A DNA stretch of 40,016 nt. Origin: Mytilus californianus. Taxonomy: Eukaryota. This document shows positions 5,312 through 27,195 of the stretch, one piece after another. Position numbers and translations under genes: made by a program. The notes under the pieces are model-generated. The model saw nothing but the letters and a program-made list of their open reading frames with translations. It ran no database searches and was not told the DNA's origin. How positions within the stretch are numbered: the stretch's first letter is position 1; every line of letters begins with the position of its first letter. The stretch is taken from positions 40,152,487 through 40,192,502 of the forward strand of contig NW_026262734.1 in the NCBI RefSeq assembly GCF_021869535.1, in the 5' to 3' direction.

Positions 5312-5596
5312 TTAAGGTGGTACATAACACTACAGGGAGATAACTCTGTAAAAATTCAGCTGCACGTTTTAATTACGTTCTATTGTTTAGGAAATATTAA
5401 GCTTCTCAATAATCAAAATCAATGTTTTTCAAACTGCTATATATCCAATGAAATTTTCCCGATAAAGTGTGTGTGGTGCAAGTTTTTTGAAATTTCTATA
5501 TTTTTTTCAAAGGGTCAAAGTAAGTATTTTGTCAAAATTTTATGAAAATTAAACGAGCCAAATTGATTTTAGTCAAGGTGTTTGGTACCACCTTAA
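5312..5596 (+). mobile_element. MITE of about 285 bp flanked by TTAA. TIR ttaaGGTGGTAC...GTACCACCttaa. Possibly piggyBac-type because of TTAA target-site usage.
   Basis: Near-identical second copy at 8057-8334, with about 90% identity across the full length. Confidence 0.75.
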
Positions 5597-7150
5597 AAGT
5601 GCTAAGTAATTTGGGAAATAGCAACGTCTAATAAACAATAGCAATGTATTTCAAAATTACAGATTAAGTGAACAAATCAGCAAGAACAGGAATACATAGA
5701 AATGTTTGGAAAACAGATAAAAAGTTGTGAAGACAACTAAACTGATTGATCGGATCAAAGATCTACTTTTAATACCCCCCTAAACAAACCAACAAAACAT
5801 AATAAAAAAAATTAAGATATGGCATACGATAATAACGGACAAGATTTTGATTTCTAAACATTTTGTTTTTTTCTGAGACAATTTTTTATTTTTATTTGTG
5901 GAAAAGTGAAAAAAAAAAAAACCACACCGTGAAATTTCTCTTGAATTTATATCACAGAAGTTCCATTTTCCACATTTTCCACAAGTCTTCCAGATTTCCA
6001 AAAAAAAATAAAGTATCATAACTTATATGTGGATTTTCTGATTCTGTTAATATAATGGAGTATTTCTAAACATGTAACCCTAAAACCTTTCATATAGAAT
6101 TTTGTCAATTTAGAGTCATTATTAAAAAAAAATGTGAATAAAAAGGAACTTTCCTAACCAAAACGAAAACCTTTTCGGAAGCAAAGCTATATGTATTTTT
6201 TTTCAGATACATATCAATTTATGCATTTTACAAAAACATGTAATATTTACGACATTGTATAAAAACTGTATTCAGCAGAGATGTATTGCCCTAAATAACC
6301 ATTTTATTCAATGGATATATGCAAAAATGGTCATTGAAAATCTGTTATTTATTATAATACTAATGGACTCTCTAATATTCGAATTACAGTAGGTTTTGAA
6401 AACTTTCTGATTTTCATCCCTCGAGTGAAACAAATATAGGAGAAATTCGACTTACAAATGTAACTATTCCGAGAGTTATTATGGTCCAGTTATTCAGGAA
6501 CTTGTTACACAGTAGATATAGTTAATGCGCATGTCACGTGAAAGAGATTGTTTTTGATATATACATGTATTAGCCAATACAGAAGTACTCCTAATGTTTG
6601 AAAAACGTCATTGTTTTATGGTATTGTTGTACCTGAAAGGAGTTGCTACTGACATATGTATGCAATAACATTAGCGTATATACAACTTGATTATTTGGCT
6701 TATTCTCTTTAGTTCTAACTGTCTATCCTTTTTTGTCTTCATTTGCGCCGGAGACTGTTTGCACACCAGTAACACGCCCAAGTGCAAGCTTAACTTTAAT
6801 TGCTTAGATGCTTTCTAGTTTTTGTTGCATTATACTCGACAAACGCTCCTATGTAAAACGTTCATGTAACGCTTCCAGAACTAATTCGCCTAATGCTTAT
6901 TTGTAAATAATGGCAATTGCTTGCAAAGATTGTAAATTCAGAAATGATTACGCGCATTCATAATCGCGATTCTGGCTTAACAGACAAGGATCGGTATTAA
7001 GCAATCATAGAAACTCGATCGCAAAAAATTCTGAATTTGCAGTAGAAAAATGATGGCAACAGCTTTGCTTGATTCGCAGCTTCTTAACACAACTAAATAA
7101 AAAAAATCGAAGTCACTTCCAGCACAAAACAAAATGTGTACTTTTTACAG

Positions 7151-7303
7151 GAAGTTGTGTATTACGGCCTGTACAAGGGGATACAACAAAATACAAAGTT
7201 TATTTAACCTCATCACGTGCTTCCGGTGAATTTAGATGCGCTGATGGAACACATTTTAATCAGAAAAAATGTTTATGTGTGTGGCCACCAAGAAATAAAA
7301 CAG
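7151..7303 (+). CDS. Plus-gene exon E0 (phase 1-1), a cysteine-rich peritrophin-A-like half domain: SCVLRPVQGDTTKYKVYLTSSRASGEFRCADGTHFNQKKCLCVWPPRNKT
   Basis: Acceptor ctttttacag|ga and donor acag|gtgatat. The frame is open. The exon aligns with minus-gene exon 32959-33198 (PCVINKWTNGTTYPV...KCLHTTDG...QACQC). Confidence 0.55.
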
Positions 7304-7844
7304 GTGATATATTATATTAAGTAATAAAGAAAAAGAGCGAAAAAAGGCAAAAAACTTTGACATACGTGAATTTTATGTTTTACCTCCAACGTGATCGGAT
7401 ATGTACAGATTTGAACACATACAAATAAAACAGCTGATATTATTTAAAGTCATAAAAATGAGAGCGAAAAAATCTCAAAAACTCACCATACATTAATTGA
7501 AAGTTTTACCACTATCTGACGTGATCGGAATTACAGATTCGTATAAGATTGTCTCTTCGAAACCTCCTTCAATCTTTCTACTCTGTCTACTCAATTGCTT
7601 TTTGTCCTTCTCTTTAATACTGATCTCTCCTGCTTTGAGCTTATTTCCCCAACTTAAAAAAATGAGAAAAAAGAAACGATGGACTGGAAAGGGAACGTGC
7701 TTAACACAATATGTTGATTTATGTGATTGTTAGGCATCCTGCTTTGGAAATGTTCAACTGCAAAAAAGACAAAATGTGTTTAACAACAATTCAAAATTAG
7801 GTTTGCCAGATATTTTATGTGATCTGTCTTATTTATCTTTTGAG

Positions 7845-8024
7845 CTACAGCCACTTTTCCAACAAGACCTAGACCAACCACCGAACCTATCAATAGACCA
7901 ATTAATACAAGACCGTTGGACCCAATCAGACCAATTAATACAAAACCGTTGGACCCAATCAGACCATTACTTCCTGGAGAACAGAAACCTGGATATCGAC
8001 CATTTGAATCTACAACAATAGGGC
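7845..8024 (+). CDS. Plus-gene exon E1 (phase 1-1), a Pro/Thr-rich linker with an internal 33-bp tandem repeat: ...TRPRPTTEPINRPINTRPLDPIRPINTKPLDPIRPLLPGEQKPGYRPFESTTIG
   Basis: Acceptor ttttgag|ct, or alternatively ctacag. Strong donor gggc|gtaagt. The frame is open and joins E0 and E2 in phase. Confidence 0.6.
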
Positions 8025-8056
8025 GTAAGTTGCTGTTTCATAGATATTTTCGCTGC

Positions 8057-8334
8057 TTAAGGTGGTACATAACATTACATGGAGATAACTCTGTAAAAAT
8101 CAGCTGAACGTTTTAATCACGTTCTATTGAGCTTCTCAATGATCAACATTAATGTTGGTCAAACTGCTATATATCCAATGAAATTTTTCCGAAAAAGTGT
8201 GTGGTTCAAGTTTTTTGAAATTTTAATATTTTTGTCAAAGGGTCAAAGTGAATATTTTTTCATAATTTTACGAAAATTAAACGAGCCAAATTAATTTTAG
8301 TCAAGGTGTTTGGTACCACCTTAATTCAACTAAA
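8057..8334 (+). mobile_element. Second copy of the TTAA-flanked MITE. It is inserted about 33 bp downstream of the E1 donor.
   Basis: cgctgcTTAAggtggtacataacattacat...ggtaccaccTTAAttcaac. Confidence 0.75.
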
Positions 8335-9965
8335 AGTTACAGTAGAATCACGTTTATTGTAATTGAGTAAAAGTTGAACCTTTGTAGGTTATACTGTGTA
8401 GTTGTTCGTACTGTTTCCTTACTTTTCATCATTTATACGCATTGGGTAAAAATGAACAAAAACTTATATTAAGTTTAAATGTCAAGAGCTTTTAACTAAC
8501 TTCGTGTAGTTTTGATACTTGTAACCACAATTTTAGATTTCTCTTAAACCATAACAAACAAGAACACTATCTTTATTTATCCATTTTGACGCCAAAGAGA
8601 TTCTGAAGATCAATTGCAGTTATAATAACTGTGTACAAAGATGACGATGCTTTTGTTGATTGGTGTATATAGTAAACCAAAACTATACAAAAAGGGAAGA
8701 TAACTCAACCAGTGTATTCCAAAAAGAAAATGAGCGAAACGTTCAAATACATTATCAAATTATGTTTGATTGCGTTTTTTTTTAAGTTTACCACCCACCG
8801 TTTCATTCATAGGAAAAAAACCACAGAGTTAACAATTGTATTTCATGCATAAACGAAAAAGTATACGATAAAAGTACATAAACTAGATAAATATTGGAAA
8901 TTATTTTTTTTGCAGATAGAAACGTGCATGTACAATAATAAATGTCAGGAAAATGAGTATATTCATCTAATAGCAGAATATTAGTCTTATGATCAGTATT
9001 TGGTTTCCTTGGAAAATGTGCATTTTCCAAAAAAGAAATGGTATTACGTCTTAGCTTGCTAATTATAGTCATTGCTAAGAAATATGCAGGCTAACAAATA
9101 ATACATTAAACAACCTGTGTCGCTCACATGGATCTATGTGGGTTTTTAACTTTGAAGATTAAAATATTATTTTGACTAAGGTCTCTTTTTGTCGTTCTTG
9201 CATTGCCGATAACTTTTCTGTTTTTAGTTTCTCTCTATCTTTAATAGTTTTTGCTATAAAGCACCTCCCAAAAATGGGTAAAATTGTCATAAAAGGGCAA
9301 TAAGACCTAAACGTAATCAACTGTGTGCAGTGTTGATTAATTTGTAGATCTCGTCTGATGAAGAACAAATATGGTAAAATAGTTTTTTTTTAGCTAAAAT
9401 AACTTATATAAGAAGTCGACCACCTACATCAAAGTTGACGTAGATTTTTTCCTGCTGTCAGATTTTATTTGGAGTTTCTTTTTATTTATTATAGTTTTCA
9501 ACATGAACGCAAAAACGGATTGTATGTAGATGATATCAACATTTGACCAATCGCCCCTGTCATATTTCCCTATCTAAGGCGGTTTTCAAGATAATAGACA
9601 CAATTGTTTCACCACTTTGTTTTATCTTTAGCTATGTTGGTTGACAAGGGGGATCACCGGACACATTTTAAAAATTATATACTAGTACTAAAATGATGAT
9701 TTTGGCCAAGTTGGTTCCATTTGGCCCTGTAGTTTCAGAGGAAAAGATTTTTGTAAAAGTGAACGAATGACGACTGGCAATGCAAGAAATAAATAACGAC
9801 ACGTTATGAAATAGTTAATTTGACCCTTTGGGCATGCATATAAATAATGTGGCCGGATTAAACATGTTTGTGAGCGCTCGCCAAACCTCTTTCCCCTTAC
9901 CTTGAACATTGTTGAAACGAAAAAAGAGATAGCTTTAGATTTATGTAGCATATTTATTTTTTCAG

Positions 9966-10112
9966 CTTGTTTTACGTCACCAGACGCCGACAGAAACTAT
10001 TTCTCACAATATATCCATGGTTACGGTACAGTAAGACGACGTTGTCCAATTGGTACCCTTTACAATGACCGAGAATGTGGCTGTATTGATTTAGCACCTG
10101 TAACAAGTATTT
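9966..10112 (+). CDS. Plus-gene exon E2 (phase 1-1), a cysteine module: CFTSPDADRNYFSQYIHGYGTVRRRCPIGTLYNDRECGCIDLAPVTSI
   Basis: Acceptor ttttttcag|ct and donor atttg|gtaagtaa... precisely ...att t|gtaagt. The exon is homologous to minus-gene exon 32474-32650, which carries CPMGQIFKPEICNCGWG. Confidence 0.65.
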
Positions 10113-10485
10113 GTAAGTAATTAGGAGTTGTAATACACATACATGTAGTGTGTACAACCAAAGAGATTATGTAATTGATATTTTTTGACTGAGTAAATTA
10201 GCATGGCGGGTGATACATGCATAGCAGGAGACGCTAACCTTTTCGACGCACCCAGTCTTACTTCTTTAGGAATTACTGTGGATTCATTTATAATCGTGGG
10301 TACCAATTTTGGTAGACAGAGGAAAACTTATGTTTTCGTGGATATTTATTTTTCGTGGTTTTGCCAAAGTCTACACACAAACCTTTAGAAAATGGAAAAA
10401 CACTTCTTTGAATACTAAATTCGTGATTTACCTGTAACCACGAAATCCATGGAAATTGGTATCCCACGAATGATAATAAATCCAC

Positions 10486-10705
10486 AGTACTGTAAACCAA
10501 CTAATTTTTGCGAGCGATTTATTTTCGCGACTTTCGCGAGTAGAAAATTAACGCGAATATAAATCATCGCGAAGATGTAAAACTTTATCATTTAATTACA
10601 TCAAATGAATTTGAAAATCGCGAAATCAAATCGCCGCAAAGTGGGCTAGAAAGGGCTTTACGCGAAATAAAGTATCCGCGAAAATAAGTTGGTTTACAGT
10701 ATATG
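10486..10705. mobile_element. MITE of about 220 bp with TIR tactgtaaaccaact. Its CpG-rich interior is full of cgcgaaa repeats.
   Basis: Left end ...agtactgtaaaccaactaattttt. Right end aagttggtttacagtat. Confidence 0.55.
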
Positions 10706-10794
10706 GGATTCCCTCAGGTTTTGTTTGTTACCTTAATTTGTCTCTTCTTAATCGATTTACGAGATATGATCATCGGTAGACTACTGACGCTTCA

Positions 10795-11400
10795 ATCTAT
10801 CCAGATTGTTATTTAAGGTACACCAATGCTCCTTGTATTGATGCCATTCGCTTTAATCCATCCAGATAGTTATTTAAGGTACACCAATGCTCCTTGTATT
10901 TATGCCATTCGCTTTAATCTATCCAGATTGTTATTTAAGGTACACCAATGCTCCTTGTATTGATACCATTCGCTTTAATCTATCCAGATTGTTATTTAAG
11001 GTACACCAATGCTCCTTGTATTGATGCCATTCGCTTTAATATATCCAGATTGTTATTTAAGGTACACCAATGCTCCTTGTATTGATGCCATTCGCTTTAA
11101 TCTATCCAGATTGTTATTTAAGGTACACCAATGCTCCTTGTATTGATACCATTCGCTTTAATCTATCCAGATTGTTATTTAAGGTACACCAATGCTCCTT
11201 GTAGTGATGCCATTCGCTTTAATCCATCCAGATAGTTATTTAAGTTACACCAATGCTCCTTGTATTGATGCCATTCGCTTTAATCTATCCATATTGTTAT
11301 TTAAGGTACACCAATGCTCCTTGTATTGGTGCCATTCGCTTTAATCTATCCAGAATGTTATTCAAGGTACACTAATGCTCCTTGTATTGATGCCATTCGT
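10795..11400. repeat. Minisatellite with a 61-bp unit and about 10 copies
   Basis: atccagattgttatttaaggtacaccaatgctccttgtattgatgccattcgctttaatct repeats head-to-tail with sparse point variants. Confidence 0.9.
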
Positions 11401-11865
11401 ATGTATGACAGTTCTTAGTATTGAACATTAATCAGAGTCTCTATTTGTTATTGCTATAATACCAAAATTGTCACAGCAGTGTTCCTTATATTTTTAAAAA
11501 GATAATGATGACATTCAGATGCATGACGGGTGCTAGTACAGAGCAGAACTCAGCTCTAGGAATGACAAATTGCAAACTTTTGATATTGTCATGTTGAAAT
11601 ATGATATTGATATAAATAAAAGGTGGTCTGTAATACTTGAATGAGACAGCAACGAACAAAACTAAAACATAAACGACATCTAGAGTTCAAAGTACAGTGC
11701 TCAACAATAAAGAGGTGTATATAATAGTTTATGGACTGTTATAGAACTTAACCTTTTGTATAGACAAATGTCATTTGACGAAGACTGTATGTTACCCTCT
11801 AGATATCGTCTGCTTATTTTGCCATCGGGTTGTTGTCTTATTGAAAAAAGTAAAACAACGAAAAT

Positions 11866-12310
11866 ACCGACACCCGTGCACACCTGTTTCAAGGAATTCA
11901 TTCACAGAAAATTTCATTAGAGTAGTTTTCTTCGGATTGACATTTATATTGTATTTTTTTATGTGTGTTCTGACATTACCCCCAAAAAGTATTAAACCCT
12001 GTTTTTAGTTTTATTATTTGTACTTAAGTCGTTGGCTTTCTCAATTTACAAGTCGTCGCATTCAAAACATTAATCTTATGACAATTACTAACATTTTAAT
12101 GTCAAATGTTTTCACTTGTGAAACCTTTTATTTTAGAAAAGAATCTAGTATTTCCTTAACCGACAGATGAATCGGTTGTTTGATGTTTTTTTGTTGTTGT
12201 TTATGCGAAATATAAACTGGTATTGTTAATATAAAATTTTAATTTGAAATTTCTAGAAAAATTACAGACCCTTATGTTCGAAGTTTTGTTGTTTTTACAC
12301 GGTAAATAAT
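11866..12310 (+). repeat. Copy 1 of a ~450-bp intronic segmental duplication (partner at 13652-14125)
   Basis: cacccgtgcacacctgtttcaaggaattcattcacagaaaatttcattagagtag...aaccgacagatgaatcggttgtttgatg... is about 93% identical to copy 2. Confidence 0.85.
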
Positions 12311-12790
12311 TTCGTTTACATGTTTTTAAAAATGGTGGATTAAACCTAGTTTTACAACTAGCTAAACCTTTCACTTGTATGACAGTCGCATATAATTCCA
12401 TTATATTAACAACAATATCTGAACAAAACAAAGAGACATAATAGGAAAAAATGTAAAAAAAATAGGGGTGCATTATTTAACATTGTGTTATAATATTAAT
12501 CACTATACAAACAGATGAATATGTCAACAAAGAAAATCAAAATGGCATAAAGACAAAGCACATAAGCAAAAATGAATGCAGGAGTACAGAAAATGACTAT
12601 AGCACAATAACACAATGGCGGGATGTATCGAGCCACGCCAAAAGGATATTACCAAATATGGACTAAAAATAAAGGTTAATAATTTACAAACACATATAAA
12701 AGAACACTATAACACGTAATTAAGATGATAAACAACGTCAGTACCTAGAACTTATACTTCAAGACCAAAACTTGACGTTTACTCACGTGT
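12300..12790 (+). repeat. Interspersed repeat family A (5'-truncated copy). It carries the aaaatggtggattaaacc...ctagctaaacc...tgtatgacagtcgc core and the distal aacacaatggcgggatg motif.
   Basis: It is collinear with the 22393-23100 copy. The core also occurs at 18985-19130 and, in minus orientation, at 20450-20565. Confidence 0.65.
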
Positions 12791-12847
12791 CTATTTATCA
12801 ATCTATACTTTATTTTGAAATATATTAGTCTGTTACTTCAATTTCAG

Positions 12848-13206
12848 ATTGCAGACCAGAAATCAATTTAGACTATGATAGTAAACCAATTAAAGACAAT
12901 GGTGGCACACACATTCCCATTGGTAATAATGGTCACGTGGATTCTGTTGCTAAAGCTGGTAGATTTAACGGCATCGGACAATTAACGATATGGTTGTATT
13001 CAAATATTGACTTTGGACAAAAATTGACAATAAGTTTTCGTTTCTACGATTTCCCAGGAGGCCCGGATGAACAAGTTTTAGTTTCTAATTGTAAGGATCA
13101 TCATTTAGGTGCTGTTGAAATTGCATTAGCGCCAAGAAATAAAGAAGTTATTTTTAGAGCAGATACCGTTTCTAGTGGACCTGCCGAAATCCGATTACCA
13201 TATAAG
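12848..13206 (+). CDS. Plus-gene exon E3 (phase 1-0), the N-terminal part of a LamG/concanavalin-like domain: CRPEINLDYDSKPIKDNGG...ISFRFYDFPGGPDEQVLVSNCKDHHLGAVEIALAPRNKEVIFRADTVSSGPAEIRLPYK
   Basis: Acceptor atttcag|at and donor tataag|gtaagc. The 119-codon frame is open. The exon is homologous to minus exons 30152-30510 and 28534-28648. Confidence 0.7.
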
Positions 13207-13369
13207 GTAAGCATACAAATCAAGAGTTATTTCATTTGCAGTTGGCAATATTTTAGTATATACGCTCAATGAAAGATGCTGTTTATTGGAATACTGGTTA
13301 AAAGAAGGACTCTGTTTTGTTTTTAGAATAACCTGAAGAAATTACAGATTTACAACTAGAATTAGGTAA

Positions 13370-13445
13370 ATAAACTCATCATAGATACCAGGATTGGAAT
13401 TTTGTATTTGCGCCAGACGCGCGTGTCGTCTATAAAAGTAAATCG
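13370..13445 (-). repeat. Short interspersed family C unit of about 65-85 bp: ttgtagacNNNcgcgcgtctggcg...cctggtatctatgatgagttt, with a conserved agacg/cgtct stem
   Basis: The reverse complement matches copies at 35850-35935 and 39215-39300 on the plus strand, and 19455-19530 on the minus strand. Confidence 0.55.
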
Positions 13446-13651
13446 CATTCGACACATTTTAAGGTCTGGTTATGTAAATACCTCTATTAAAATTTTAATT
13501 TTGAAAAATATAGATATACCTTTATGCAAAACAATAATAATACAAATCTATAACAGTAATACGAATGATTTCATAGGCGTAGGTTTTGTGACCTTGAATG
13601 TGCAAGCACGCAGTCCTTCTTCACAATATATTAGATACAGTGCGATATTGA

Positions 13652-14125
13652 ACACCCGTGCACACCTGTTTCAAGGAATTCATTCACAGAAAATTTCATT
13701 AGAGTAGTTTTCTTCGGATTGACATTTATATTGCATTTTTGATTTGAGCGTTTGTTCTCATGTTCTGACATTACCCCCAAAAAGTATTAAACCCTGTTTT
13801 TAGTTTTATTATTTGTACTTAAGTCGTTGGCTTTCTCAATTTACAAGTCGTCGCATTCAAAACATTAATCTTAAGACAATTACTAACATTTTAATGTCAA
13901 ATGTTTTCATTTGTGAAGCCTTTTATTTTAGAAAAAAATCTAGTATTTCCTTAACCGACAGATGAATCGGTTGTTTGATGTTTTTTTTTGGTTGTTTATG
14001 CGAATTATAAACTGGTATTGTTAAATAATATAAGATTTTAAATTGAAATTTCTAGAAAAATTACAGACCTTTATGTTCGATGTTTTGTTGTTTTTATGTA
14101 AATAATTTCTTGTTTACATGTTTAC
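13652..14125 (+). repeat. Copy 2 of the ~450-bp intronic segmental duplication
   Basis: Collinear with 11866-12310 and in the same orientation. It lies on the other side of exon E3. Confidence 0.85.
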
Positions 14126-14625
14126 AATGCATTTCGTCGTACATTGTAAGTCGTAAACAATGTACGATAACTTTTGCTTTAGTCATGTTAGTATCAATCA
14201 TTTGTGTGGTTTTGAAAGAAATGTTCAGAGGAATCGTTAAAGATCCGGCTTTCGTAGTTTTATGAATTTTACCATCAAAACCTCTTTAAAGTATTAAAAT
14301 GAACACAAAAAAGGAGTACCTCATCACAAAATAACGAATTCCTCACACGAGAAGATTATTCGTATCAGTTGTACATAAATCCTCTGTTTATACATTGTGT
14401 TATTTTATGAATCACGAACCTTATGTTGCAAATCCTAAAGTAAATTTTATTAATACATTGCTTCTATTTTATTGAGAAGTCTCGTATCTTATAAAACATT
14501 TGGCTTTGACTTTTCCCTCTGAATGAAAACACCATATTATTAATTTCGTTCGTTTGAAGCGCTTTTCTGGATTTACCTTCACAAGGATCGTTCAAACACA
14601 AACATCGAAATCCAGGGATGTATAA

Positions 14626-15125
14626 TACCGTATAGCGGGTTATTTTCAATGGGTGTTTATTTTCGCTTATTTTGGCGGATAAGGGAAAATCGCTAAATTA
14701 ATTTCCGCGAAAATTTATGCATACGTTCTGTACTTTCTAATAGCTAAAGCGTTTTGAAAACTCGATTTTTCCTGTTCGTCGGATCAATAATGGTTTATTA
14801 ATTTAACCAACATAAATGCGAAAGGCTATTGTTCCCTGGCTGTCAGGTGTGTATTAGTGAATTGGTTACATAATAAAATAATTAATAATTTAAGAGTGTA
14901 AGGTACTCTATCAGGTATTTAATCCAAATTAATTAGTGTCAATTTATAGTCAATTTTAGTTGCAAGTCACTCATGATAATATTTAACTGCACCCATTTCA
15001 GTATCCGCCAAAAATTAAATTGTAATTAAAGAATCCGCCAAAATAAAAACCGCCAAAATTTTCGTATACTTTGTTGCCCCTAAATCGCGAAATTTACACC
15101 CGCGAAAATAACCCGCTATACGGTA
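14626..15125. mobile_element. MITE of about 500 bp with a 22-bp TIR taccgtatagcgggttattttc, and cgcgaaa- and ccgccaaaa-rich sub-termini
   Basis: Left end taccgtatagcgggttattttcaatgg. Right end cgcgaaaataacccgctatacggtac. No ORF. Confidence 0.7.
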
Positions 15126-15588
15126 CATAGAATCGTTAGGAACTAAAGATGATTATTAAAAGCAGCTCGAACGTTAGTGAATTCGTAATGTTAAAAAAAG
15201 GAAAGAAGATATCAACATGATGAAGCAGATATGTCAAAGAACAAAGACTATGTCGTGGCTAAATGAAAAAGACAGACAGACAACACTCCACTTAACACTA
15301 CAGATAAGATTAAAGTTTAGTATCACTAACTCAACCAAAAACAGTGATTAACTCATCTGTTCCTGAAGTGTAAGTAGTTCCTGCTCAACTAGTGGCACTG
15401 TAACTCATAATCAGTTCTTATTTAGTGAAAGGTCGCATTCGACATCAAATTATTCTTAGTTACATACATTGAATGGCCTCACATATGATCAGACCTCCAT
15501 GGATTAAACGGTATGTGAAAGTAATTATTTACGTAAAAAACCATTGAAACTAAAAACAATTTATCATTATTTACTTGTTTGTCAACAG

Positions 15589-15679
15589 GATAAAGCATGG
15601 AAAAATGTCACATACGTATATGATGGAACAGCATTAAGGGCAAAGGTTGATGATGAAGAACAGGCTGTTTCCATGAAAG
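15589..15679 (+). CDS. Plus-gene exon E4 (phase 0-1): DKAWKNVTYVYDGTALRAKVDDEEQAVSMK
   Basis: Acceptor ttgtttgtcaacag|ga and donor gaaag|gtaaaatc. The phase joins E3 and E5 exactly. Confidence 0.65.
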
Positions 15680-16754
15680 GTAAAATCATGATTCTTTTTT
15701 TGTGTATAGAAATGTGTTATAGTTATAATAAAATTAGTCGGATCACATACAAGGCTTAAGATGCAAAAAGTATGCTGTATACCTTGTATAACATATGATA
15801 CTGACTTATATTTATATCCTCAATACCAAGTCAAACTTATCGATCATCCACGGGATGTTTTGTATATTGATTTGATCTTAATGTGGTCTGATCATTACAA
15901 TAACTTTCTGTGTCATTTTTGTTACTTTACAGGAAATAAAACATTAAATGCTAATTTACGTTTGAATTTTCTTTGGGTACAAAACAGTGTAAAGGGTTCT
16001 TCATCATATGCACCATATTTTCTGTACACTCAATAATCGTCCAAACAGTTCTTCGTGTGGTGGCCGTAGTGATTCTGGTGACAGGTATATTAGATATCCT
16101 CTCTATTTAAAAAACCTATGAAATAATGTCAGTAAGAAAAAAAAAAGATTAAAGAATTGGCTGAAACAAAAACTGAACTTGGTTAACTTATTAACAGTTA
16201 ATTGCTGGCGTGACAAACGGTTAGATATTATGTACTGTTAAAAGGTCGTATTATGACATATATTTAAGTTTAGGTGAGCTGTTTGGCTGTCATGTAAAAG
16301 AAATAATTGAATTGTTATCTTTTGTTTCCATGTTGTTGCATTTATTCATTTTTATTCATTCTAATGCATTTCGTTTGTAACGATAATTTTCGTTGGACGT
16401 TTACAAATATTTTGAAGAGTTAGATTCCACGTTCTACCAGTCCGTAGCTAAGGAAAGCCACCATTCTAAATTCCGAATTTTTGTGGAATGTAATTTCTCA
16501 AAAAAAACAAAAAAAACTCAAAAAAGTCCCATTTCGTGCCTCAAAATCTTCCTTTTGTGAATATTTAAACCATTCAAAATCATACAAAATGTATAAATAC
16601 GTCTGCTGTTTGACATCAATAGTATACCTATGACGTCACATTGTTTAGATACCAAAGACAATAACAGTTTTTCGTACCTTTTCATGTATGACAATTTTAA
16701 GCCAAATATTTACTTAGAACTAATTTATTTAAACATGTAGCATTAGAATGGAGA

Positions 16755-16915
16755 TAACTGTATTGTACTTTAAGCTTGGTTTTCGTAAAACTTGATTTTT
16801 ACTGTCGCAAATATCCGTTTACCTATCTCCGCTACGCGTCGCCAGGTAAACTCAATTTGCGACAGTAATATCTACTTCTTACGAAGGCCAAATTTAAAAT
16901 ACAATACAGTTATCT
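16755..16915. mobile_element. Hairpin-forming MITE of about 160 bp. TIR agataactgtattgtactttaa / ttaaaatacaatacagttatct, plus an internal palindrome tactgtcgcaaat / atttgcgacagta.
   Basis: Nearly perfect inverted symmetry was read directly. Confidence 0.6.
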
Positions 16916-18894
16916 ACTAATTTTGACCATTCAGATTTATCGTATTTTCTTACAATATATTTGAGTGGCAACATGCAAGCTACTTGGTAGTACAGAGGCT
17001 TATACTTCTATGCAATGAGGCATGCTTCAGAAATCTGGTTAGTGATTTTTGCTGCGTCTGTAAACATTTGCGTTATCACAACTTAGGTAGACATTCGATG
17101 ATTTGGAGCTTGTAATACGGTGTTGTTGCTTATCTAATAGCTCGAGCCATTTACTGACCTCTCTCTACAAGAGTTGTGTTTAGTTGGAGATAATAATCCA
17201 TCAAACACCAAAATGACACGAGAGTGAACACTTGTACATATATATACAACCAAATAAGTTTTCAATAACAAGCAAAAAACTAATATCCTTAGAAAAGTCG
17301 TAAAAAGCCTTTGATAAAACACATTAAAAAAATTAAAAGATCGTTCAAGGGAAATTGCCTTAATTTATGAAACAAAAACATATGGCCAGAAGGTAACGGC
17401 ATCTACTTGATTAAGGTTATTTTACTGTGATTGGAATAATTGAACCATCCTCTAATATAGAACAGTGGTATAACAACTGAGCAATTGTATAAACTAAAAA
17501 TTATCAAAATAAACTCATACCTTGCCATTAATTTAAGTTTTTGGAATATTTTGAATTTTCAGACTATTCCGTGTCTTTTACACTACAAACTTGTGGCATT
17601 GCGTTTCGTTTGAAACTTTTGTTCACAACAAAACAAAATGGTTAAAATAAAACAAAGAAGAGAAAAATTCAAAAACTTTATTAAGTAAAGAATAAAATTC
17701 TCCATAACCATATCACAAACGAGATTGTGCAAAGTAAAAATTCATTCCAACTCTGAAGATATCAATCGAGACCCTCTTAATGTCACAACATACAAGAGAA
17801 AACATAAATACAAATTCCCATGGTATACGAACTTGTCCTACTATAAACCATCTCTAATGAAGCATAATGTGACAATCCATGTAAACTGTCGCTATAATCA
17901 TCCATCTTCATTTGACATTATAAGGTTTCAAGCTAAATAATGGAATGTAATTAAATAGTCTACTACTTCTTTGTTTTTTTACTATCGTATCATGTATTAC
18001 ATTAAAACATTAGTCAGAAATAATAGTTAGATGTTAACGGACTTTAACACGTATTACAAAAAAGGAATATAATAAGAAATAACAACTAGGAAAATAAGAT
18101 ACTATAATGAAAATAACAAAACCAAAATTTTCTTTCTTTTTACATTTACGTATCACGCAAAGTATAAATACAATCTTCAACATTTTCGTCCATTATTTCA
18201 GATAAATTTGGACGTACTTATTCATCATTAATTTTCACCATGGTTAAGTATTTCCGAGTATCTAAGATACTGGAACAATTGATTTATTATGGAAACTTAT
18301 TCGATTTCTTGTATCAAGTTTTTCAATGATCTTTTAAGAGTTAGATGTATGTACCATCTAGTATAAAAAGTGTATGACAGTACTTAATAAACACGGTTCA
18401 CTCATTTAAAAAAAAATTAACAGACTGACATAATGATATTTAAATGATGTCGTGATCTTAAACTTATTAATGATTATCTATTTGTTGTCATCATCCATCA
18501 AGTTGACTTTAAAAGATTAATTTCCGAACAGACATCATTTTCAATGGACTTTCAAATTGCAAATACATGTAAAAGAATAATAATACTAGTTTTTGGTGCT
18601 TTGAATTTTTTGTTGAAAGTTCTTACCATGCCAACATTTTATAGGTAAAGTTGAACGAGTCTAAACAAGAGATTATAACCGATTTAAGACTTAAGGGAGT
18701 ACACAAATGTAAGAAGATCCATGTCTGACCTGTTTTTTTCATGAAAATAAAAGTTTGCACAGCAGATGATATATACTTATCGGTCATATTTGCTTTTTTC
18801 TTTATTGTTTTGTCATCAAATTGGCTGTTTACTGTTTGAATTGTTTCGCATTCATGCATTTTTAGTTTTTTGCGTTTTGCTCATTGTTGAAGGG

Positions 18895-18985
18895 TGCGCA
18901 GTGACCTATAGTTGCTGACATAATGTATATCTACATCATTTGGACTCTTGTTAATAGTTGACTCATCGGGAATCATACCACATCT
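18895..18985 (+). repeat. Interspersed family B tail motif (...ataccacatctccttatttt), abutting a family A copy
   Basis: Related to 20806-20875 and 28985-29050. Confidence 0.4.
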
Positions 18986-19130
18986 CCTTATTTTCATATA
19001 ATTTAGGAAGTTGAACATTTGAGTCATATTCCTGACTTGGTACAGACATTTCCTGTGTAGAAAATGGTGGATTAAACATGGTTTTATAGCTAGCTAAACC
19101 TCTCGCTTGTATGACAGTCGATTTAGAACA
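18985..19130 (+). repeat. Interspersed family A core copy
   Basis: catattcctgacttggtacagacatttcctgtgtagaaaatggtggattaaacatggttttatagctagctaaacctctcgcttgtatgacagtcg. Confidence 0.7.
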
Positions 19131-19454
19131 ATAACAGTTTATTTTCTTTGAATATAAGAATCTTTTTAATAAAGGAGGGTTATCTTTATCATTTTTATTA
19201 AAGTCACATAATCCACTTCTCTGTATCTTCTAATTTTCTTACATTCTAGATCACTTGTTTATATAAAATGAATATCTTAAATACATATTTGTAGTTGTTA
19301 AACTTAATTACTGCATAGTCCAATTTTCTTTCGTATTTCAGAATTTAGTATCTTTAATGGATATGGCTACATTGCGCACATTAAATAATAATTTATTTTT
19401 AACAGCGATCAATTTTAGAAGCTGTTCACCGGTTTTATAGGTTAGGTGTGACAA

Positions 19455-19530
19455 TATTGAATAAACTCATCATTATACCAGGATAAAAAAATGTATGCTA
19501 GATGCGCGTTTTGTCTACAAAAGACTAATG
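19455..19530 (-). repeat. Family C short interspersed unit
   Basis: aaactcatcattataccagg...gctagatgcgcgttttgtctacaaaag is the reverse complement of the consensus. Confidence 0.5.
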
Positions 19531-19747
19531 AAAATATCCCTGTGATATTTTTCACCTCTTTTTGTCATCAGTCATGCAATACTAGTTGTTTAATCATTGT
19601 ACTCCTATTGCCAAATCTCTTAAAAAAATACGATTGATACATCTCAAATCCATTAAAATGGTTTTGATTTATTATTCCCCCATGCAACTAAGTTGCGTAG
19701 GGTTTAATGTTTTTGACCCGTCCATCTGTCCGTCCGTCAGTCCTGTT

Positions 19748-20050
19748 TTTTGTCATCGCAACTCTTCTGACACCACATACAGAATTTCATGAAACTTTGA
19801 AGATAATAATGACATACTTTGTAGATGTCAATATCACCAGAAAATCAGGGATTTAATGTTTTTCTTGGAGTTTATGCCCCTTCAAACTTAGAATTTTGGC
19901 CATAATTTACTGCTGCAACAGTTTATCATCGCAACTCCTCAGAAACCACACAACAGAATTTCATGAACAATGTAGTTAATAAGGATATATTTTATAGATG
20001 TGCATATCGACAGAAAATTATGATTCAATGGTTTTTATTGCTTTTGAAAA
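19748..20050 (+). repeat. Local tandem duplication, two units of about 150 bp
   Basis: tcatcgcaactcttctgacaccacatacagaatttcatgaa...cagaaaatcagggatttaatgtttttcttg versus tcatcgcaactcctcagaaaccacacaacagaatttcatgaa...cagaaaattatgattcaatggtttttattg. Confidence 0.6.
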
Positions 20051-20449
20051 AAATGAACACATGAACTTGGAATTTTAAGCCCAGTAACAATGAAGGGCTT
20101 GGGCTATAGAGCGTGCTCATAAAGGTTCTTCAATTTTGGTGTGTATGTGCTCTGGTATGTCTGTTGAAAGCATACTTGTGAAAGTATTGCAAGGCGTGAG
20201 TGCAAGACATATCCCAAAAGGAACATTTGTCAGTCATCTGTATATAGGTCTTTGCTCTGTCTGCAATTGCAGGTGAAAAGTATCTCTTTCGATATTTGGT
20301 GATTTTTAGCGATCACGACCGTTTTGTCAATAAATAAAACTTAGGCTTTTATTGTTTCACTGCTTGTCTCATTGACAATAACCCTTCTACATTATTCATA
20401 ATGATATTTCTGCTGTACCCCAATTTTTGACAATATAATGTAATTCTAT

Positions 20450-20565
20450 GCGACTGTCATACAAGTAAGAGGTTTAGCTAGCTATAAAACCAGGTTTAAT
20501 CCACCATTTTCTACATAAGGAAATGCCTGTACCAACTCAAGAATATGACAGGTGTTTTCCATTCG
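20450..20565 (-). repeat. Interspersed family A core copy, inverted relative to 18985-19130
   Basis: gcgactgtcatacaagtaagaggtttagctagctataaaaccaggtttaatccaccattttctacataagg... Confidence 0.7.
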
Positions 20566-20805
20566 TTAGATGTGTTTGAGCTATAGATTTTGCCATTTAA
20601 TAAAGGACTTTCCGTTTAGAATTTCTCTTCGAGTTCAGTATTTCTGTCATTTTACTTTGTTCTTTCCAGGTCAAAACAGAGATATTAAGATATCTTTGTT
20701 GTTTTTTTTAATATGCTTTGATCCATTTGATTCAACACAATAAAGCAAGAATATAATTCGTCTCTTTGTAAACCAGCTGTTACATAATATGTATAATTGT
20801 TAACT

Positions 20806-20875
20806 TTTTACACATTGTGACTTGGATGGAGTGTTGTCTCATGGGCACTCTTACCACATCTTATTTCTATTGAAT
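20806..20875 (+). repeat. Interspersed family B copy
   Basis: acacattgtgacttggatggagtgttgtctcatgggcactcttaccacatctt is about 85% identical to 28985-29050. Confidence 0.55.
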
Positions 20876-20969
20876 GTCATTGTTGGTGTTTTTTTGGTCT
20901 ATTTCATACTATAATTTCTCAAATATTCAGTGGTACATATATTTAATTTTAATTTTCTTTGTCTTGCAG

Positions 20970-21046
20970 GGCATTTAGATACACGATCAGGTGGATTTGA
21001 GATAGGGATGTGCAACAGACGTGGATATGTTGGATATATTGATGAT
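20970..21046 (+). CDS. Plus-gene exon E5 (phase 1-0): HLDTRSGGFEIGMCNRRGYVGYIDD. It ends at a GC donor (gat|GCAAGT).
   Basis: Acceptor ttctttgtcttgcag|gg. Only the GC-AG intron keeps E6 in the protein-like frame, and the donor matches the GC-AG consensus GCAAGT. Confidence 0.55.
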
Positions 21047-22392
21047 GCAAGTTTTTTTTTCTCAAAACCGTTTAAAGTTTACTTTATTTCTGCTATCTTG
21101 TAAACTTTTGTCATCGTCTTACTTTTCACATTTATAAAACTCGAACCTTTCTTTATGTGAGCATCACATAGAAAATGCATCAAATAGCTAGTTCTTACTA
21201 CAATCAAAACAAGTGGATTCCTGTCTTTCATGACAGTAAATATACTTAGCACATACTTACAACTTATCGTCCAATCAAATTGCTTATATTTGCCTTCTAA
21301 GTTTATCGTACATTCTTTTTTCATTGTACTAAGTAACTATGCATGAATGACCACAAGGGTAAGATTTCATTGTATCGTAATCAAGATATTAAAAACAAAA
21401 TTTGACACTGGCTATTTTAGAATAAAATGCTATGTCCCAAATTAGTTTTCACATTGATTTTTATATATCCTGCTATTAAAACCTTTGATTTTAAAACATA
21501 TTTTTGACAACTGCAAGTTTCTATCATTTAAATAAAGAATAACTAATATGGTCTTTAATACCTTGATTATAGTACCAACCTATCATATAAGTGTGGTAAT
21601 TTATCATCCATGCAATTAGTTTGTACACAAAAAAGTATGTACTATGAAACCTTGTGAAGGGAAATTAAGGCAACTCGATGATCTTGTTAAAACATGATCT
21701 ATTTCATCATGAATTGAAAAACCTTGATAATGTCTGAAGGGAATGTGCCACCTATATCTATATTCTGATAAAGCTTTAGGTTTTTACTTTGAAATGAAAA
21801 GAAAACCAATAATTTTTCAAATTGATCTATTGCTACATATAATTGCTTTTTAATGCCTAACCGCAAAATTTTCTATGGCACACCTATCTATATTTAAAAA
21901 AAATATTATAGCACTGTTTTACTGTGAAATTGATTTTTGTTTTCAAAACATGTAACGCTCCTACTGCAATTTAAATATGTATGCCTGTTTTGGTCAATTA
22001 ATTATTTCATCTCAGCATTTAAATAAGGACATGTAGAAAGACACCGCTATATATAGATATGCAAACTTACACCAGCAGCTACCATCTTTTCATTCTGAAT
22101 ACCCATGATACTAGTGAATGAATTTACAAAACATAAAACTTAGTTAATGAACTTTGTTTTACAAACACCTGTGATACAATAGTCAGCCAAAATAAACTAT
22201 CAACAGACCAATTAAAAGATAACTCGAGTTGTAAATATGTGCTAAATTGGATAGTCTATGAAAAGGTATATACTATGAAATTAAGAGCTCGGGGCAAGCC
22301 CCTCTCTCTAAAAAGTTAAATCACAAAAATACTGAACTCCGAGGAAAATTCAAAGTCCCTAATCAAATGGCAAAATCAAAAGCACAAACATA

Positions 22393-23100
22393 TCAAACGA
22401 ATGGACAACAACTGTCATATTCCTGACTTGGTACAGGCATTTTCTTATGTAGAAAATGGTGGATTAAACCTGGTTTTATAGCGCTTAACCTCTCACTTGT
22501 ATAACAGTCACATCAAATTCCATTATATTGACAACGATGCGTGAATAAAACAAACAGACATAAAAGGTAAAAATGTCAAAATAGGGGTACAGCAGTCAAC
22601 ACCGTGTCCCAATCTTAATCACAACAAAACAAACAAATATTTAACAAAGAAGCACAAAAAAGCATATATCACATTTAACAACCTCGTTCATTGCTTACTT
22701 ATTTTTCTATTTTATTTATGTATGCCAAATCAACCCATAAAGGATCGAAGGATTTTAAGCACTGGTTTAACATTAACTCTGGCGTAGAATCGCGTGTTTG
22801 ACGTCAGAATGTAAACGTCACACAGGTAGAGATATAAAATAATTTTGTCGTTCAAAGTATGCAAAAATTATAATAGAACAATAACACAATGGCGGGATGA
22901 TTAAAGTACAGAGACACGTCATATGTATCAAAGAAACATATAAAGTCACACGGACAAAGCACATACGTAAAAATGAAAAATGATACAAACAACACAATGA
23001 CGGGATGCATAAGTACAGAGTCACGTTAAATTTCATAGTATATACCTTTCATAGACTCACCGATACGTTGACATTTCTTTGTTAAAAGGAGATAACGTAC
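22393..23100 (+). repeat. Longest copy of interspersed family A, about 700 bp with no ORF
   Basis: The head is aacgaatggacaacaactgtcatattcctgacttggtacaggc. The core and the distal (caa)caatggcgggatg..agtacagag motifs occur twice. Confidence 0.65.
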
Positions 23101-23361
23101 ATGACGCAGAGTTATTGTGAAAGGAATTGGTTTAATCTAGCCGAATCATGTGCATTAGATGACTGTAGATTTATTGTTTTGAAAATTCACACATTTACGC
23201 TTTCTTAATGGCAAATTCCATAACACTACGATCGAAATGTTTCCTAACCTGTTTTTTTATTCTTTTTTTTAATTGCCTGTTTTTTTTTTCTTTTACTTTC
23301 CCGCATTTACACATATTATTGTTCTTGGACTTTGCGTAATATATATTTTTCTTTTTTGCAG

Positions 23362-23469
23362 TTGAAGATCCATCGCTGTGTAAATATAGACTATGTTATT
23401 GGAAATGGAAAAGGACCACTGAGACCATATGATGCTAGAGACTCTTACCTAGATATTCGTGGACCTTGA
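23362..23469 (+). CDS. Plus-gene terminal exon E6: LKIHRCVNIDYVIGNGKGPLRPYDARDSYLDIRGP followed by a stop
   Basis: Acceptor ttttcttttttgcag|tt and stop TGA at 23467-23469. AATAAA motifs lie at 23667 and 23685. Confidence 0.55.
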   Translation: MKIHRCVNIDYVIGNGKGPLRPYDARDSYLDIRGP

Positions 23470-25241
23470 AAGTTACTTGACAACTAAATAACTTTGACAC
23501 TTTTTTCTGTAAATCTTTTTTGAAAATAACATATACGTTCCGCTGCTAGGTCGTTCCGAGAAAAAATAGCTAATCTTGATGAATTTTGAAATTCTATTTC
23601 ACAAGAACTGAATATGTTCCCCTTTTTAGACAAGACCATTTACCGCGTTGAACATCAGCCATATTAAATAAAAAAAGGATAGAGAATAAACGGGGAAATC
23701 TTCGAACTTGTTCGGTTTCTTTTTCACATTGGTATTGGTATATTCTATAATTACGAAAATTTCTTATACAGCAACAGCAGTCATTTGTCTCTTTGTTACG
23801 ATGTCGTCAGAATTTTTAACCATGCTCAATTACCGACCCAACTGACCAATTACAAGGGCAATGTAGGTGACCAATGAAAACATTGAAATAGACATACATA
23901 AAAAGGACGATGAGCACTAACCATCGGAGTATTGTAGGGTTCAATCACTCCTTTTATATTATTTTCGATTTCAGCTTTACTTTATGGTATGGTACCGAAC
24001 TTATTTTTAAATTAACGAATGAAAAATACATAATAAAACAACTGTGTGGAAGAAAATACAAAACAAAGAGTTAGATGTCATAATTAGTTTTATAACAATG
24101 TTTCGTGTGATTTCATGTATGAAAAGAATAAAATCCGTTTACATATAAATATATATCATTATGATCAAAATAATGTTTTGAACATATAATACTCAGTGCA
24201 TATCAATTGTGTTTTTGTAGAAAATAATAGTACAGCTTTGCATTGTTTATCATAATAACCAGTCAATAATTCATAGTTTCTGTTTTGAGAAGTTTAAACA
24301 TTTATTTCAATGTAATGAGTATCGTAAATTGAAAACAATAATACAATATCAATGCAATTATTTATATTTATCTGTAGCTGTTTATAATCGGGCTTTTAAT
24401 TCCGAATATATTCACTAGTGGTGAATACAGTGTAAATGAACTATTTACATTTATCAAAATAAAAAAAAAAAACATTTCACGACATATGAAAATAAATATT
24501 TTGAGTTAAAGGAAAAAAAAACCCAGTAATCTCAAACATGGTCACAATAAATTTGAAATTTATATTTATATCATATTATGCAAGTCTTTGACAAAAGACA
24601 TATATATTGTAAGTACATGTGTCCTACGAACTTAACAACAAACTTGTATTTACAAACAAAAAATATAGACAATATAAAGACAATATATATAATTATATTA
24701 CATGCTTTTGTTTTTGATCATCGAGAGTAAAAACAAACCGGACGCTTTCAGCATTATTTACTTGCAGATAAATGAAATCATCAATGCCAGTCTCCATATG
24801 ATTGAAGGAAAGTTGATCGGTAAGATCAGAAATGCGCTTTAAAATACGCTACCGGACCTTAAGCAAAATGGATGAGACATATATAGTTTCAGTCAGATTT
24901 TGGTGAATATAAAGTATTGCATCTTCAAATATTTCATCAACAATCTATTTAATAACATATCAAAAATGTACAGCACTTGGCCTTTATACAATATTTGTTA
25001 AGACGTTACACACGATTAAGTATTATTTGCATACAGATTATCTCTTGTTATTTTTAACATCACCAATAAAATTGTGTGATAAGTAAAATATTCTATACAA
25101 ACATATCATTTTATAGAGAAGTATAAAGGTTATTGCAACTAAGATATTTCTTTTTAACTTTTCATATATTCTCAATTGGAATCGATTATTTGCTTAAGGA
25201 GCGATAAAACCTTGTGAATAAAATGGTTGATTGACAGCTTT

Positions 25242-25301
25242 TTAAGTGAATAAGTAGTTCATACTGGCTGGAATGTTGTTGCATCCGTTGTAGACTGTCC
25301 A
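25242..25301 (-). CDS. Tentative terminal exon of the minus gene: WTVYNGCNNIPASMNYLFT followed by a stop
   Basis: Strong acceptor ttatttttcag|tgg in the required phase 0. It shows only weak similarity to plus-gene E6 (CVNID versus GCNNI). Confidence 0.25.
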   Translation of the reverse strand, partial: WTVYNGCNNIPASMNYLFT

Positions 25302-26457
25302 CTGAAAAATAAACAGAAGTAATTATTGAACATGTAGTAATGAATTAAACAATTTCTAGATATCTTCCAAAATATCAAAAAATAGGATTGACAAAAATAC
25401 TACTTGAATGACTTAAGACGAAAAAAATGGAGTTTGATACAGTAACATGAAAAGTTTTGTGAGGGTTTTTTTTATAGAGAAAATCGCAAAGATACCCATC
25501 CCAACGTGAAACTTTTGTTCTTCATGATATTAGATTAAAATCAAGGACAAACACGAAAAATACCTCACAAAGAAGTTTTGTCATTTAATTGTGAAATTTA
25601 AATTCCACGGAAATAAACCACTTAAAACGACGGTTGTCATATTTGTACCAGAATCTGCCTACCCTTTTACAGTAGCTAAGATCACCCCGGTTGTTTGGGT
25701 GCGTGTTGCGCATTCCTCAGTTTTCTTAGTAAAGGCTTATGGTCAATAGACTGTTGATTTGACCGATTTGAATGCCCATTATCCCACCGACTGATTTTTG
25801 CAATCAACAACGGGTTTATGTTAGTTTAAGTTGTATAATGAAAGTATATAAACCTTCAAGCTAATGGTAATAGAAAGAACAGCAATTAACTGCCTCAATG
25901 GAAACATTTAAGTAAATTTATAATGAATACCCTATTGTTTACACAAGACGCATTAGTGTTTCAAAATAGTCAAACGGCCAAATCAGGTAAGAGTTGAAAA
26001 GCATTCACGGCCAAACAGTCTTTTGAAAGTTAGGTTGATTTTCTAGGCACTTTATACATATTCTAACGCCTGGTATTTCTTAATCATAAGAAATCCGATG
26101 GACAAGGTTTAATTTGCAGTTGTCACTACACATAGGCAGACATATACATATATTAATTTACAGTGATTGTATGCTTCTAAAAATAGATAAGCATCCTGTA
26201 ATTATACTGAAGAGATGAGTAGATGATCATTTCTGTATACTAGAAGAATACTTCGTGTATTGTATCAGATATCCTTGTTTAATTCCTACGAGAAATTAAC
26301 ACCTCCCGAAACGAAAGCTGATTTTTATCAGCTATAGTTAGAGGAGGGGATAAGGTGTCTGCGCAATGCTAGGTGGTGTTGTCGTAGAAGTTAGAAATAA
26401 TAAGTATAGGTCCAGCCCCGCTCGGGGAGGAAGTAAAGAAACAGATCTACTCTAACA

Positions 26458-26486
26458 TCGTTAGGTTGATTTTCTAGGCACTTTAC

Positions 26487-26517
<31 letters not shown>

Positions 26518-27039: not shown

Positions 27040-27195
27040 ATATAAACAAGTCTAAATTGAAAACCACGTTCAAACCTATGATTGCGTTGGATAAAAACCG
27101 CAATTTTTATACGTGTGCATGTAAAACAAATTTCTTGGTAGAGGGGTCTAAATACAGCACAAAACATTTTCCAAAAGACCAAAAGAGTGAAAAAT
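27040..27195 (+). repeat. Second copy of the 26458-26665 duplicated segment
   Basis: About 92% identical over 150 bp. Confidence 0.7.

Follow-up and report, generated by a model that had tools for sequence, protein, structure and literature searches.

Pif and BMSP are proteins that combine VWA, CB and LG domains (PMC11291548, PMC7747718). A third group of the family has been named 'Laminin G3/Pif-like' (bioRxiv 10.1101/2021.07.10.451900), and LamG3, which has CB and LG domains without VWA, has been described as a Pif homolog produced by VWA loss (PMC10543319). The Pif_LamG3 clusters of bivalves have been explained by successive reverse tandem duplications and VWA loss (PMC10543319). A Laminin_G_3 'Shell matrix protein-1' is present in the nacre, myostracum and fibrous prism of Mytilus galloprovincialis (PMC4517812), and a chitin-binding 'SMP', P86860, is known from Mytilus californianus (PMC3896809). 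Here we analyzed a 40,016-nucleotide (nt) stretch of the M. californianus genome (RefSeq assembly GCF_021869535.1, contig NW_026262734.1, positions 40,152,487 to 40,192,502 of the forward strand), referred to below as the window and numbered from its first letter. We conclude, with a probability of about 0.88, that positions 2026–23469 of the plus strand hold a complete gene of eight coding exons, which encodes a small, putatively secreted protein of the VWA-less LamG3/Pif-like branch of the Pif/BMSP superfamily. This gene (the plus gene) converges on a Pif/BMSP-type neighbour on the opposite strand (the minus gene) and is homologous to the C-terminal cassette of that neighbour. The proposal in the first-pass annotation, made by reading the letters of the window, that the plus-strand exons belong to a real Pif-superfamily gene with such a partner is upheld.

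The plus gene is already annotated, and both its class and its evolutionary mode, VWA loss beside Pif genes, have been published; beyond correct annotation, the importance of the locus is small. What the present analysis adds is gene-structure evidence for an ancestral cassette common to a small gene and its giant neighbour despite near-unrecognisable protein divergence, the occurrence of the convergent pair in three Mytilus species together with a similar pair in an oyster, and the alternative splicing of the first Cys module. These results can be used in reconstructing the evolution of the Pif family and in picking targets for work on mussel biomineralisation.

Structure and orthologs of the plus gene

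Exon assembly from open frames, splice sites and orthologs gave an open reading frame (ORF) of 1182 nt for the plus gene, encoding 393 amino acids (aa) in eight coding exons. Six of its seven introns are GT-AG and one is GC-AG; the window as a whole is AT-rich metazoan DNA of ~31% GC. Seven of these exons had been recognised in the first-pass annotation; they read through in a single open frame (intron phases 1,1,1,0,1,0) to a stop codon at 23469. Splice-site assembly confirmed them, and every peptide quoted in that annotation was recovered at its position and on its strand. No VWA or chitin-binding exon had been reported upstream of 7151. This is correct as regards VWA, since no VWA-like coding sequence was found on the plus strand in the entire window, but a coding exon with an ATG at 2026–2098 had been overlooked. 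This exon 1, located by tblastn with the M. coruscus ortholog (96% identity), encodes a predicted signal peptide, MQGLFLSVCIVISSYLHTCISLRM, and ends in a GTAAGT donor in phase 1. Its translation is the N-terminus of RefSeq isoforms X3 and X5. An acceptor, ttaatttcag, lies immediately 5′ of it at 2012–2021 and implies another 5′ untranslated region (UTR) or alternative exon.

The first 4-Cys ChtBD2-like module, C-x26-C-x10-C-x-C, is encoded by exon 2 (7151–7303, E0 in the first-pass annotation), and the second, C-x24-C-x10-C-x-C, RCPIGTLYNDRECGC, by exon 4 (9966–10112); both are phase 1-1 exons, of the cassette type in the case of exon 2. Exon 3 (7851–8024) encodes a Pro/Thr/Arg-rich linker with a 33-nt (11-aa) tandem repeat. 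The end of exon 4 was settled by the orthologs, with a GTAAGT donor at 10113 and the junction VTSIY|CRPE. The LamG/ConA-like domain is spread over the remaining four exons. Its N-terminal 119 codons form exon 5 (12848–13206, 359 nt), which matches the cassette hidden Markov model (HMM) with E=1e-46. Exon 6 (15589–15679), preceded by a phase 0 intron and followed by a phase 1 intron, carries the second part of the domain, and exon 7 (20970–21046) the third, GHLDTRSGGFEIGMCNRRGYVGYIDD, followed by the non-canonical GC donor GCAAGT. Exon 8 (23362–23469) supplies the end of the domain and a short tail, with the stop codon at 23467–23469. A GT donor for exon 7 at 21051 was rejected because it breaks the reading frame and the ortholog junction points to the GC donor at 21047; the exon 7/8 junction is YIDD|LKIH, and its DD|LK join agrees with all orthologs.

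By cluster look-up, the ORF equals RefSeq XP_052073503.1 ('shell matrix protein-like' isoform X3), save for a 6-nt alternative acceptor. RefSeq holds five isoforms of the gene (XP_052073501-505). Isoforms X1 and X3 use an acceptor at 7845, 6 nt 5′ of 7851; the two acceptors stand in tandem (7845/7851, CTACAG|), and the residues 'TA' are gained or lost with the choice between them. Exon 7151–7303 is skipped in X4 and X5, so that proteins with either one or two Cys modules are predicted. Ten extra N-terminal residues, MFSYKNGIRS, are present in X1, X2 and X4; the alternative exon for this N-terminus (MFSYKNGI) was searched for throughout the window and was not found, and it lies outside. The coding sequence (CDS) in the window and the RefSeq 'shell matrix protein-like'/'asparagine-rich protein-like' orthogroup, comprising the five entries above and Pecten maximus XP_033747646, represent the same gene. 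Compared with the M. californianus members of that orthogroup, the window is missing only the alternative 5′ exon of X1, X2 and X4, and nothing else substantive. The RefSeq names are based on similarity to the proteomics-identified shell proteins 'Shell matrix protein' and 'Asparagine-rich protein'.

The 393-aa protein consists of a predicted signal peptide, a 4-Cys module, a Pro-rich repeat linker, a second 4-Cys module and a C-terminal ConA/LamG-like (Laminin_G_3) domain. The N-terminus, MQGLFLSVCIVISSYLHTCIS, encoded by exon 1, is hydrophobic, is kept in the orthologs and is modelled as a helix at residues 2–23. Each Cys module is peritrophin-A/ChtBD2-like but has four Cys rather than six. 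CBM_14 matches the protein just below its cut-off of 22.1 bits (21.6 bits, E=2.4e-4) and over positions 25–48 of the 53 in the profile only, and a profile search of PDB sequences yielded only a weak match (E=0.18), to a chitinase CBM14. Exons 2 and 4 cross-match at 44% identity and exon 4 is therefore taken as an internal repeat of exon 2. The tandem repeat of the linker was delimited with TRF at 7891–7966 (33 nt, 2.3 copies, 95% match), and indels in the ortholog alignment indicate that linker length differs among species. Laminin_G_3 matches with 23 bits (E=9.6e-5), the cut-off being 27.6, and Laminin_G_2 is also sub-threshold. Several orthologs carry a precomputed match to PF13385, and the Laminin_G_3 cut-off is passed by P0106, P0114 and P0063, relatives recovered with the plus-family profile described below. 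A Pfam search of the 393-aa protein found no VWA. An AlphaFold model, built from a 9-sequence alignment, was used for coarse fold assignment only; the best Foldseek matches, to its better-modelled C-terminal sandwich, were LG/LNS/TSPN/ConA-like domains (neurexin, agrin, perlecan LG3, collagen IX NC4 and NEL), with TM-scores to target of 0.5–0.57. We accordingly assign to the plus protein a C-terminal beta-sandwich domain of the Laminin_G_3/ConA-like type.

The conceptual translation, used as a protein query, retrieved full-length proteins of 366–398 aa. Identity to the plus protein is 92% in M. coruscus, 88% in M. edulis, 52% in the Pecten maximus 'shell matrix protein-like' entry and 46% in Sinanodonta. 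The orthologs, found in Mytilus, Pecten and other scallops, Saccostrea, Sinanodonta and Dreissena, range from 345 to 405 aa, have hydrophobic N-termini and are without VWA; those of scallops, unionids and Dreissena are 40–52% identical to the plus protein. Full-length ortholog CDSs were found on Logan contigs of 1.2–2.4 kb, which must represent spliced transcripts because the genes span 5–21 kb. On comparison with M. coruscus, the exons are 94–99% identical and the introns 82–93%, and dN/dS for the plus gene is 0.44. These values and the transcript contigs speak for a gene that is expressed and under constraint. The exon boundaries recur in Pecten, Sinanodonta, M. edulis, M. coruscus and Saccostrea, and in Dreissena the equivalent of the 359-nt exon is divided in two.

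Homology of the two C-terminal cassettes

The minus gene ends in a C-terminal cassette of the Pif/BMSP type (25242–33727, minus strand; intron phases 1,1,1,0,1,0), and exon-by-exon homology of the plus gene to this cassette had been claimed by eye, with a pairwise alignment suggested as the check. We ran that check, and the similarity proved to be near chance. When the plus protein was compared by BLASTP with the C-terminus of the minus protein, 53 aa aligned at 26% identity (E=0.024). The score of the minus protein under the plus-family HMM could not be told apart from those of 2000 shuffles, and the two 119-aa exons, aligned ungapped, share 15 identities (shuffle p about 0.006–0.02). Overall identity of the two cassettes is ~13–26%. 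On pairwise comparison only, homology would be rejected; a single profile expansion settled the question. The plus-family profile, run against 1.84 billion representatives, matched 550 proteins, many of which are long and are matched at the extreme C-terminus over the second Cys module and LG. They include P0061, P0065 and P0066, VWA(+CBM_14) proteins of canonical Pif architecture, with profile E-values of 1e-36 to 1e-40; by BLASTP, the plus protein is 31% identical to P0061 over 240 aa (E=1e-30). Across its whole cassette, the minus C-terminus matches the proteins found with the plus profile, with E down to 3e-16, and the intermediate P0106 matches both the plus protein (E=1.5e-21) and the minus protein (E=3e-16) in a common region. 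When the profile was rebuilt from the first-round matches, it scored 62.3 bits on the minus C-terminus (E=5e-18) over 299 profile positions, compared with 8.4 bits for the best of 2000 shuffles.

Gene structure agrees with the profile result. In a profile-guided alignment, five of the six minus introns lie no more than 3 columns from plus introns and have identical phases (1,1,0,1,0), and the large LG exon has the same length, 359 nt, in the two genes. Because of the expanded-profile score, the intermediate sequences and the coincident introns, we regard plus/minus homology as established: the Cys-module and LG cassette of the plus gene shares ancestry with the C-terminal ends of VWA-CB-LG proteins and, more remotely, with that of the minus gene. 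The homology proposed by eye was thus real, but the visible or pairwise similarity by itself is not significant. The view that the LamG exon structure has diverged, with 3+1 exons in one gene and 4 in the other, has to be abandoned: the domain has four exons in both genes, with identical phases and a first exon of 359 nt. The extra Pro-rich exon noted in the plus gene is a true structural difference, the linker there being a separate exon.

Family placement, origin of the pair and alternative explanations

Having LG and lacking VWA, the plus gene falls within the definition of LamG3; the absence of VWA places it outside both Pif sensu stricto and BMSP. It resembles LamG3 in its candidate signal peptide and in its putative chitin-binding-type Cys modules, followed by a Laminin_G_3/ConA-like domain without VWA, and also in its homology to the CB-LG part of Pif, its position next to Pif-type genes and an origin for which reverse tandem duplication and VWA loss have been proposed. 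Unlike LamG3, which has one to three full ChtBD2 domains, it has degenerate 4-Cys half-ChtBD2 units (sub-threshold for CBM_14) and a Pro-rich repeat linker between the Cys modules. With Pif (Pinctada fucata Pif97/Pif80) it shares a homologous Cys-module and LG cassette, C-terminal and in the same module order. It differs from Pif in having no VWA, in its length of ~390 aa versus ~1000 and in showing, by inspection, no long Asp/Lys/Arg-rich (acidic/basic low-complexity) insert in the LG region. Pif sensu stricto is a precursor that is cleaved into two proteins, Pif97 and Pif80, and it has a charged, low-complexity region that binds aragonite. BMSP (blue mussel shell protein, M. galloprovincialis) belongs to the same superfamily, and its tandem VWA, CB and LG order is that of the minus neighbour. 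The plus gene, however, has zero VWA, and the minus-gene orthologs have seven VWA stretches versus four in BMSP and give no Pfam LG match.

The facing 3′ ends of the two genes had been placed about 1.8 kb apart, and the stop codons are indeed separated by 1772 nt (23470–25241). This interval carries polyA-signal hexamers on both strands and should hold both 3′ UTRs. The convergent pair is also present in M. coruscus and M. edulis, with gene ends ~1.8 kb apart, and the pairing is conserved across Mytilus. In Saccostrea cucullata (L006 16674–25010), a 2348-aa multi-VWA+CBM_14 gene is convergent with the plus ortholog at a distance of 1.66 kb. If this neighbour is orthologous to the minus gene, the pairing is at least as old as the mussel-oyster split. 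Each of the two window genes is closer to other family members (plus to P0061, E=1e-30; minus to P0106, E=3e-16) than to the other. Given the low mutual identity, the closer relatives elsewhere and the same pairing in other species, any plus/minus duplication must be ancient. The inverted duplication suggested in the first-pass annotation therefore fits the published model if it is an ancient one, but a recent local event is not supported by identities of 13–26% and by the closer relatives elsewhere. We propose that the two genes may go back to an ancient inverted (reverse tandem) duplication, after which the plus copy lost its VWA region.

As to function, family membership makes a linker role the most likely one. 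The plus protein would be secreted by the mantle into the shell-forming space and would there join the chitin framework to mineral or to other components of the matrix: the Cys modules might hold it to the chitin, and the LG domain might bind the mineral or matrix partners, as has been suggested for Pif. We also considered that the tail-to-tail pairing of a LamG3 and a multi-VWA gene, with stops less than 2 kb apart, has been kept since before the mussel-oyster split through functional coupling and not by simple inheritance. This we find rather improbable; such coupling could come from regulatory sequence shared at the 3′ ends, from antisense overlap of the 3′ UTRs or from expression of both genes in the same mantle cells. 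If it were true, the pair would preserve the stage at which VWA loss gave rise to LamG3 genes.

Several observations weigh against the assignment of the plus gene and the history proposed for it. The CBM_14 and Laminin_G_3 matches of the plus protein are both under the curated Pfam thresholds. The quality of the AlphaFold model is poor: its mean pLDDT is 53, values in the first third of the LG domain stay under 50, and the fold match therefore depends on the ~120 residues that are well modelled. A dN/dS of 0.44 denotes moderate constraint only. P86860 and the M. galloprovincialis 'Shell matrix protein-1' may belong to the orthogroup of the plus gene or may be paralogs; P86860 lies outside the 90%-identity cluster of the plus gene. 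Neither the cassette HMM nor tblastn detected LG exons in the Saccostrea neighbour. A VWA-gene partner is absent within 10 kb in Dreissena, where the downstream gene is unrelated (ataxin-2-like), and in Sinanodonta, where no gene was called within 10 kb, and no VWA gene was called in that range around the Pecten ortholog. With the partner missing in these three genera, adjacency through duplication is something we infer.

Other explanations of the locus were weighed against our preferred reading. According to the first-pass annotation, the exons made up only the 3′ half of another large Pif-like gene, whose VWA and first ChtBD2 exons would lie left of the window. The N-terminal 10 residues of X1, X2 and X4, which the window does not encode, do require at least one alternative 5′ exon upstream of position 1. 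The in-window exon, however, provides an ATG and a predicted signal peptide that form the N-terminus of X3, X5 and every ortholog, so the CDS is complete in the window; annotated or transcript-derived orthologs from ~10 species are all 345–405 aa without VWA; and, besides the absence of plus-strand VWA sequence in the window, the 10 kb upstream of the M. coruscus ortholog hold no called gene. We therefore regard a truncated large gene as extremely unlikely. The other option offered in the same annotation, a shorter LamG-only paralog, was the correct one, as the complete short ORF and the short VWA-less orthologs attest. If a single shell-matrix gene had undergone an inverted duplication recently and in one lineage, this would explain the tail-to-tail arrangement at 1.77 kb and the module order, intron phases and 359-nt exon common to both genes. 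Such a young duplication is nevertheless very improbable, because protein similarity between the two genes is near noise while each has far closer relatives elsewhere, orthologs of the plus gene stand at 40–52% identity in scallops, unionids and Dreissena, and the pairing recurs in other Mytilus and, in similar form, in an oyster.

We give equally little credence to the idea that the two genes are unrelated neighbours whose cassettes resemble each other by chance or by convergence of Cys-rich modules. The BLASTP E-value of 0.024, the shuffle-level score of the plus-family HMM on the minus protein and the 15 identities in 119 ungapped positions are what such a relationship would produce, but 62 bits over 299 positions for the expanded profile versus 8 bits for the best shuffle, intermediates that match both proteins in the same region and the coincidence of five introns and of exon length argue for common descent. 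The most plausible of the alternatives, though still unlikely, keeps the family assignment and disputes the role: the protein would not belong to the shell matrix and would have another extracellular chitin- or glycan-binding function, in immunity, in the lining of gut or mucus, or in the byssus. Many Pif/LamG3 genes are without high mantle expression, and the ancestral role may have lain outside biomineralisation (PMC10543319); LamG3 genes are retained in shell-less octopods (bioRxiv 10.1101/2021.07.10.451900). A shell-matrix role is favoured instead by the RefSeq name, given by similarity to shell-matrix proteins identified by proteomics, by the Laminin_G_3 'Shell matrix protein-1' detected for M. 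galloprovincialis in three layers of the shell (PMC4517812) and by the Pif/BMSP-type gene that is the conserved neighbour of the plus gene.

The minus gene, its counterparts and intronic repeats

The C-terminal exons of the minus gene were delimited with the M. galloprovincialis fragment P0011. In the direction of transcription, the cassette comprises a ChtBD2 exon (33727–33506), an exon with a Cys module and linker (33198–32959), the exon of the CP.G..C.C module (32650–32474), a 359-nt exon (30510–30152) and three further exons of the LamG region (28648–28534, 27685–27597 and 25301–25242), with the stop codon at 25242–25244. Upstream of these, also on the minus strand, lie the last three VWA-domain exons (36025–40015), which correspond to residues ~1213–1758 of the ~2190-aa orthologs. 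The gene runs past the right edge of the window, which therefore covers residues ~1213 to the C-terminus. Full-length orthologs are 2190–2199 aa and have seven VWA stretches and one CBM_14 (ortholog P0034); RefSeq labels them 'uncharacterized protein' only. A Pfam search of the minus neighbour for an LG domain gave no match, the domain being strongly diverged, and a word-indexed protein search with the minus C-terminus returned one cluster only. An intron of the minus gene (31624–32332, minus strand) contains two long overlapping ORFs of 122 and 144 aa, e.g. DKRDDFSFPIVNYPFLDGDVPLSPSYGVYISQLVRYACVC, without Pfam match; they look like the coding region of a decayed transposable element.

Two observations concern genes near the plus orthologs of other species. 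The penultimate exon of the Saccostrea neighbour has an LG motif, CNSPLYLGRGVGNELSPFEGTVDYV, recognised by eye only. In Pecten maximus (L002 1–490), a 1027-aa gene with a faint CBM_14 and a cassette-like last exon (HMM E=5e-5) ends 9.5 kb upstream of the ortholog on the same strand, i.e. in tandem.

Repeats are found within and around the plus gene. Upstream of the first coding exon, a 192-bp tandem repeat occupies 646–1324 (3.6 copies). The segments 5312–5597 and 8057–8324 match each other's M. coruscus counterparts reciprocally at 86–90% identity, which identifies them as copies of a dispersed repeat in two introns of the plus gene. The intron between exons 9966–10112 and 12848–13206 harbours a 61-bp minisatellite (10788–11399; 10 copies, 94% match), which gives rise to artefactual ORFs recurring in all three frames. 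Its copies all map to one ~64-bp unit of M. coruscus (L001 18474–18537), so that the array looks like an expansion in the M. californianus lineage. Lastly, a ~430-bp direct repeat (11870–12297 and 13652–14096; 94–99% identical, spacing ~1.79 kb) flanks the 359-nt LG exon. M. coruscus apparently has the downstream copy only, and the upstream copy would accordingly be a recent insertion or a local intronic duplication.

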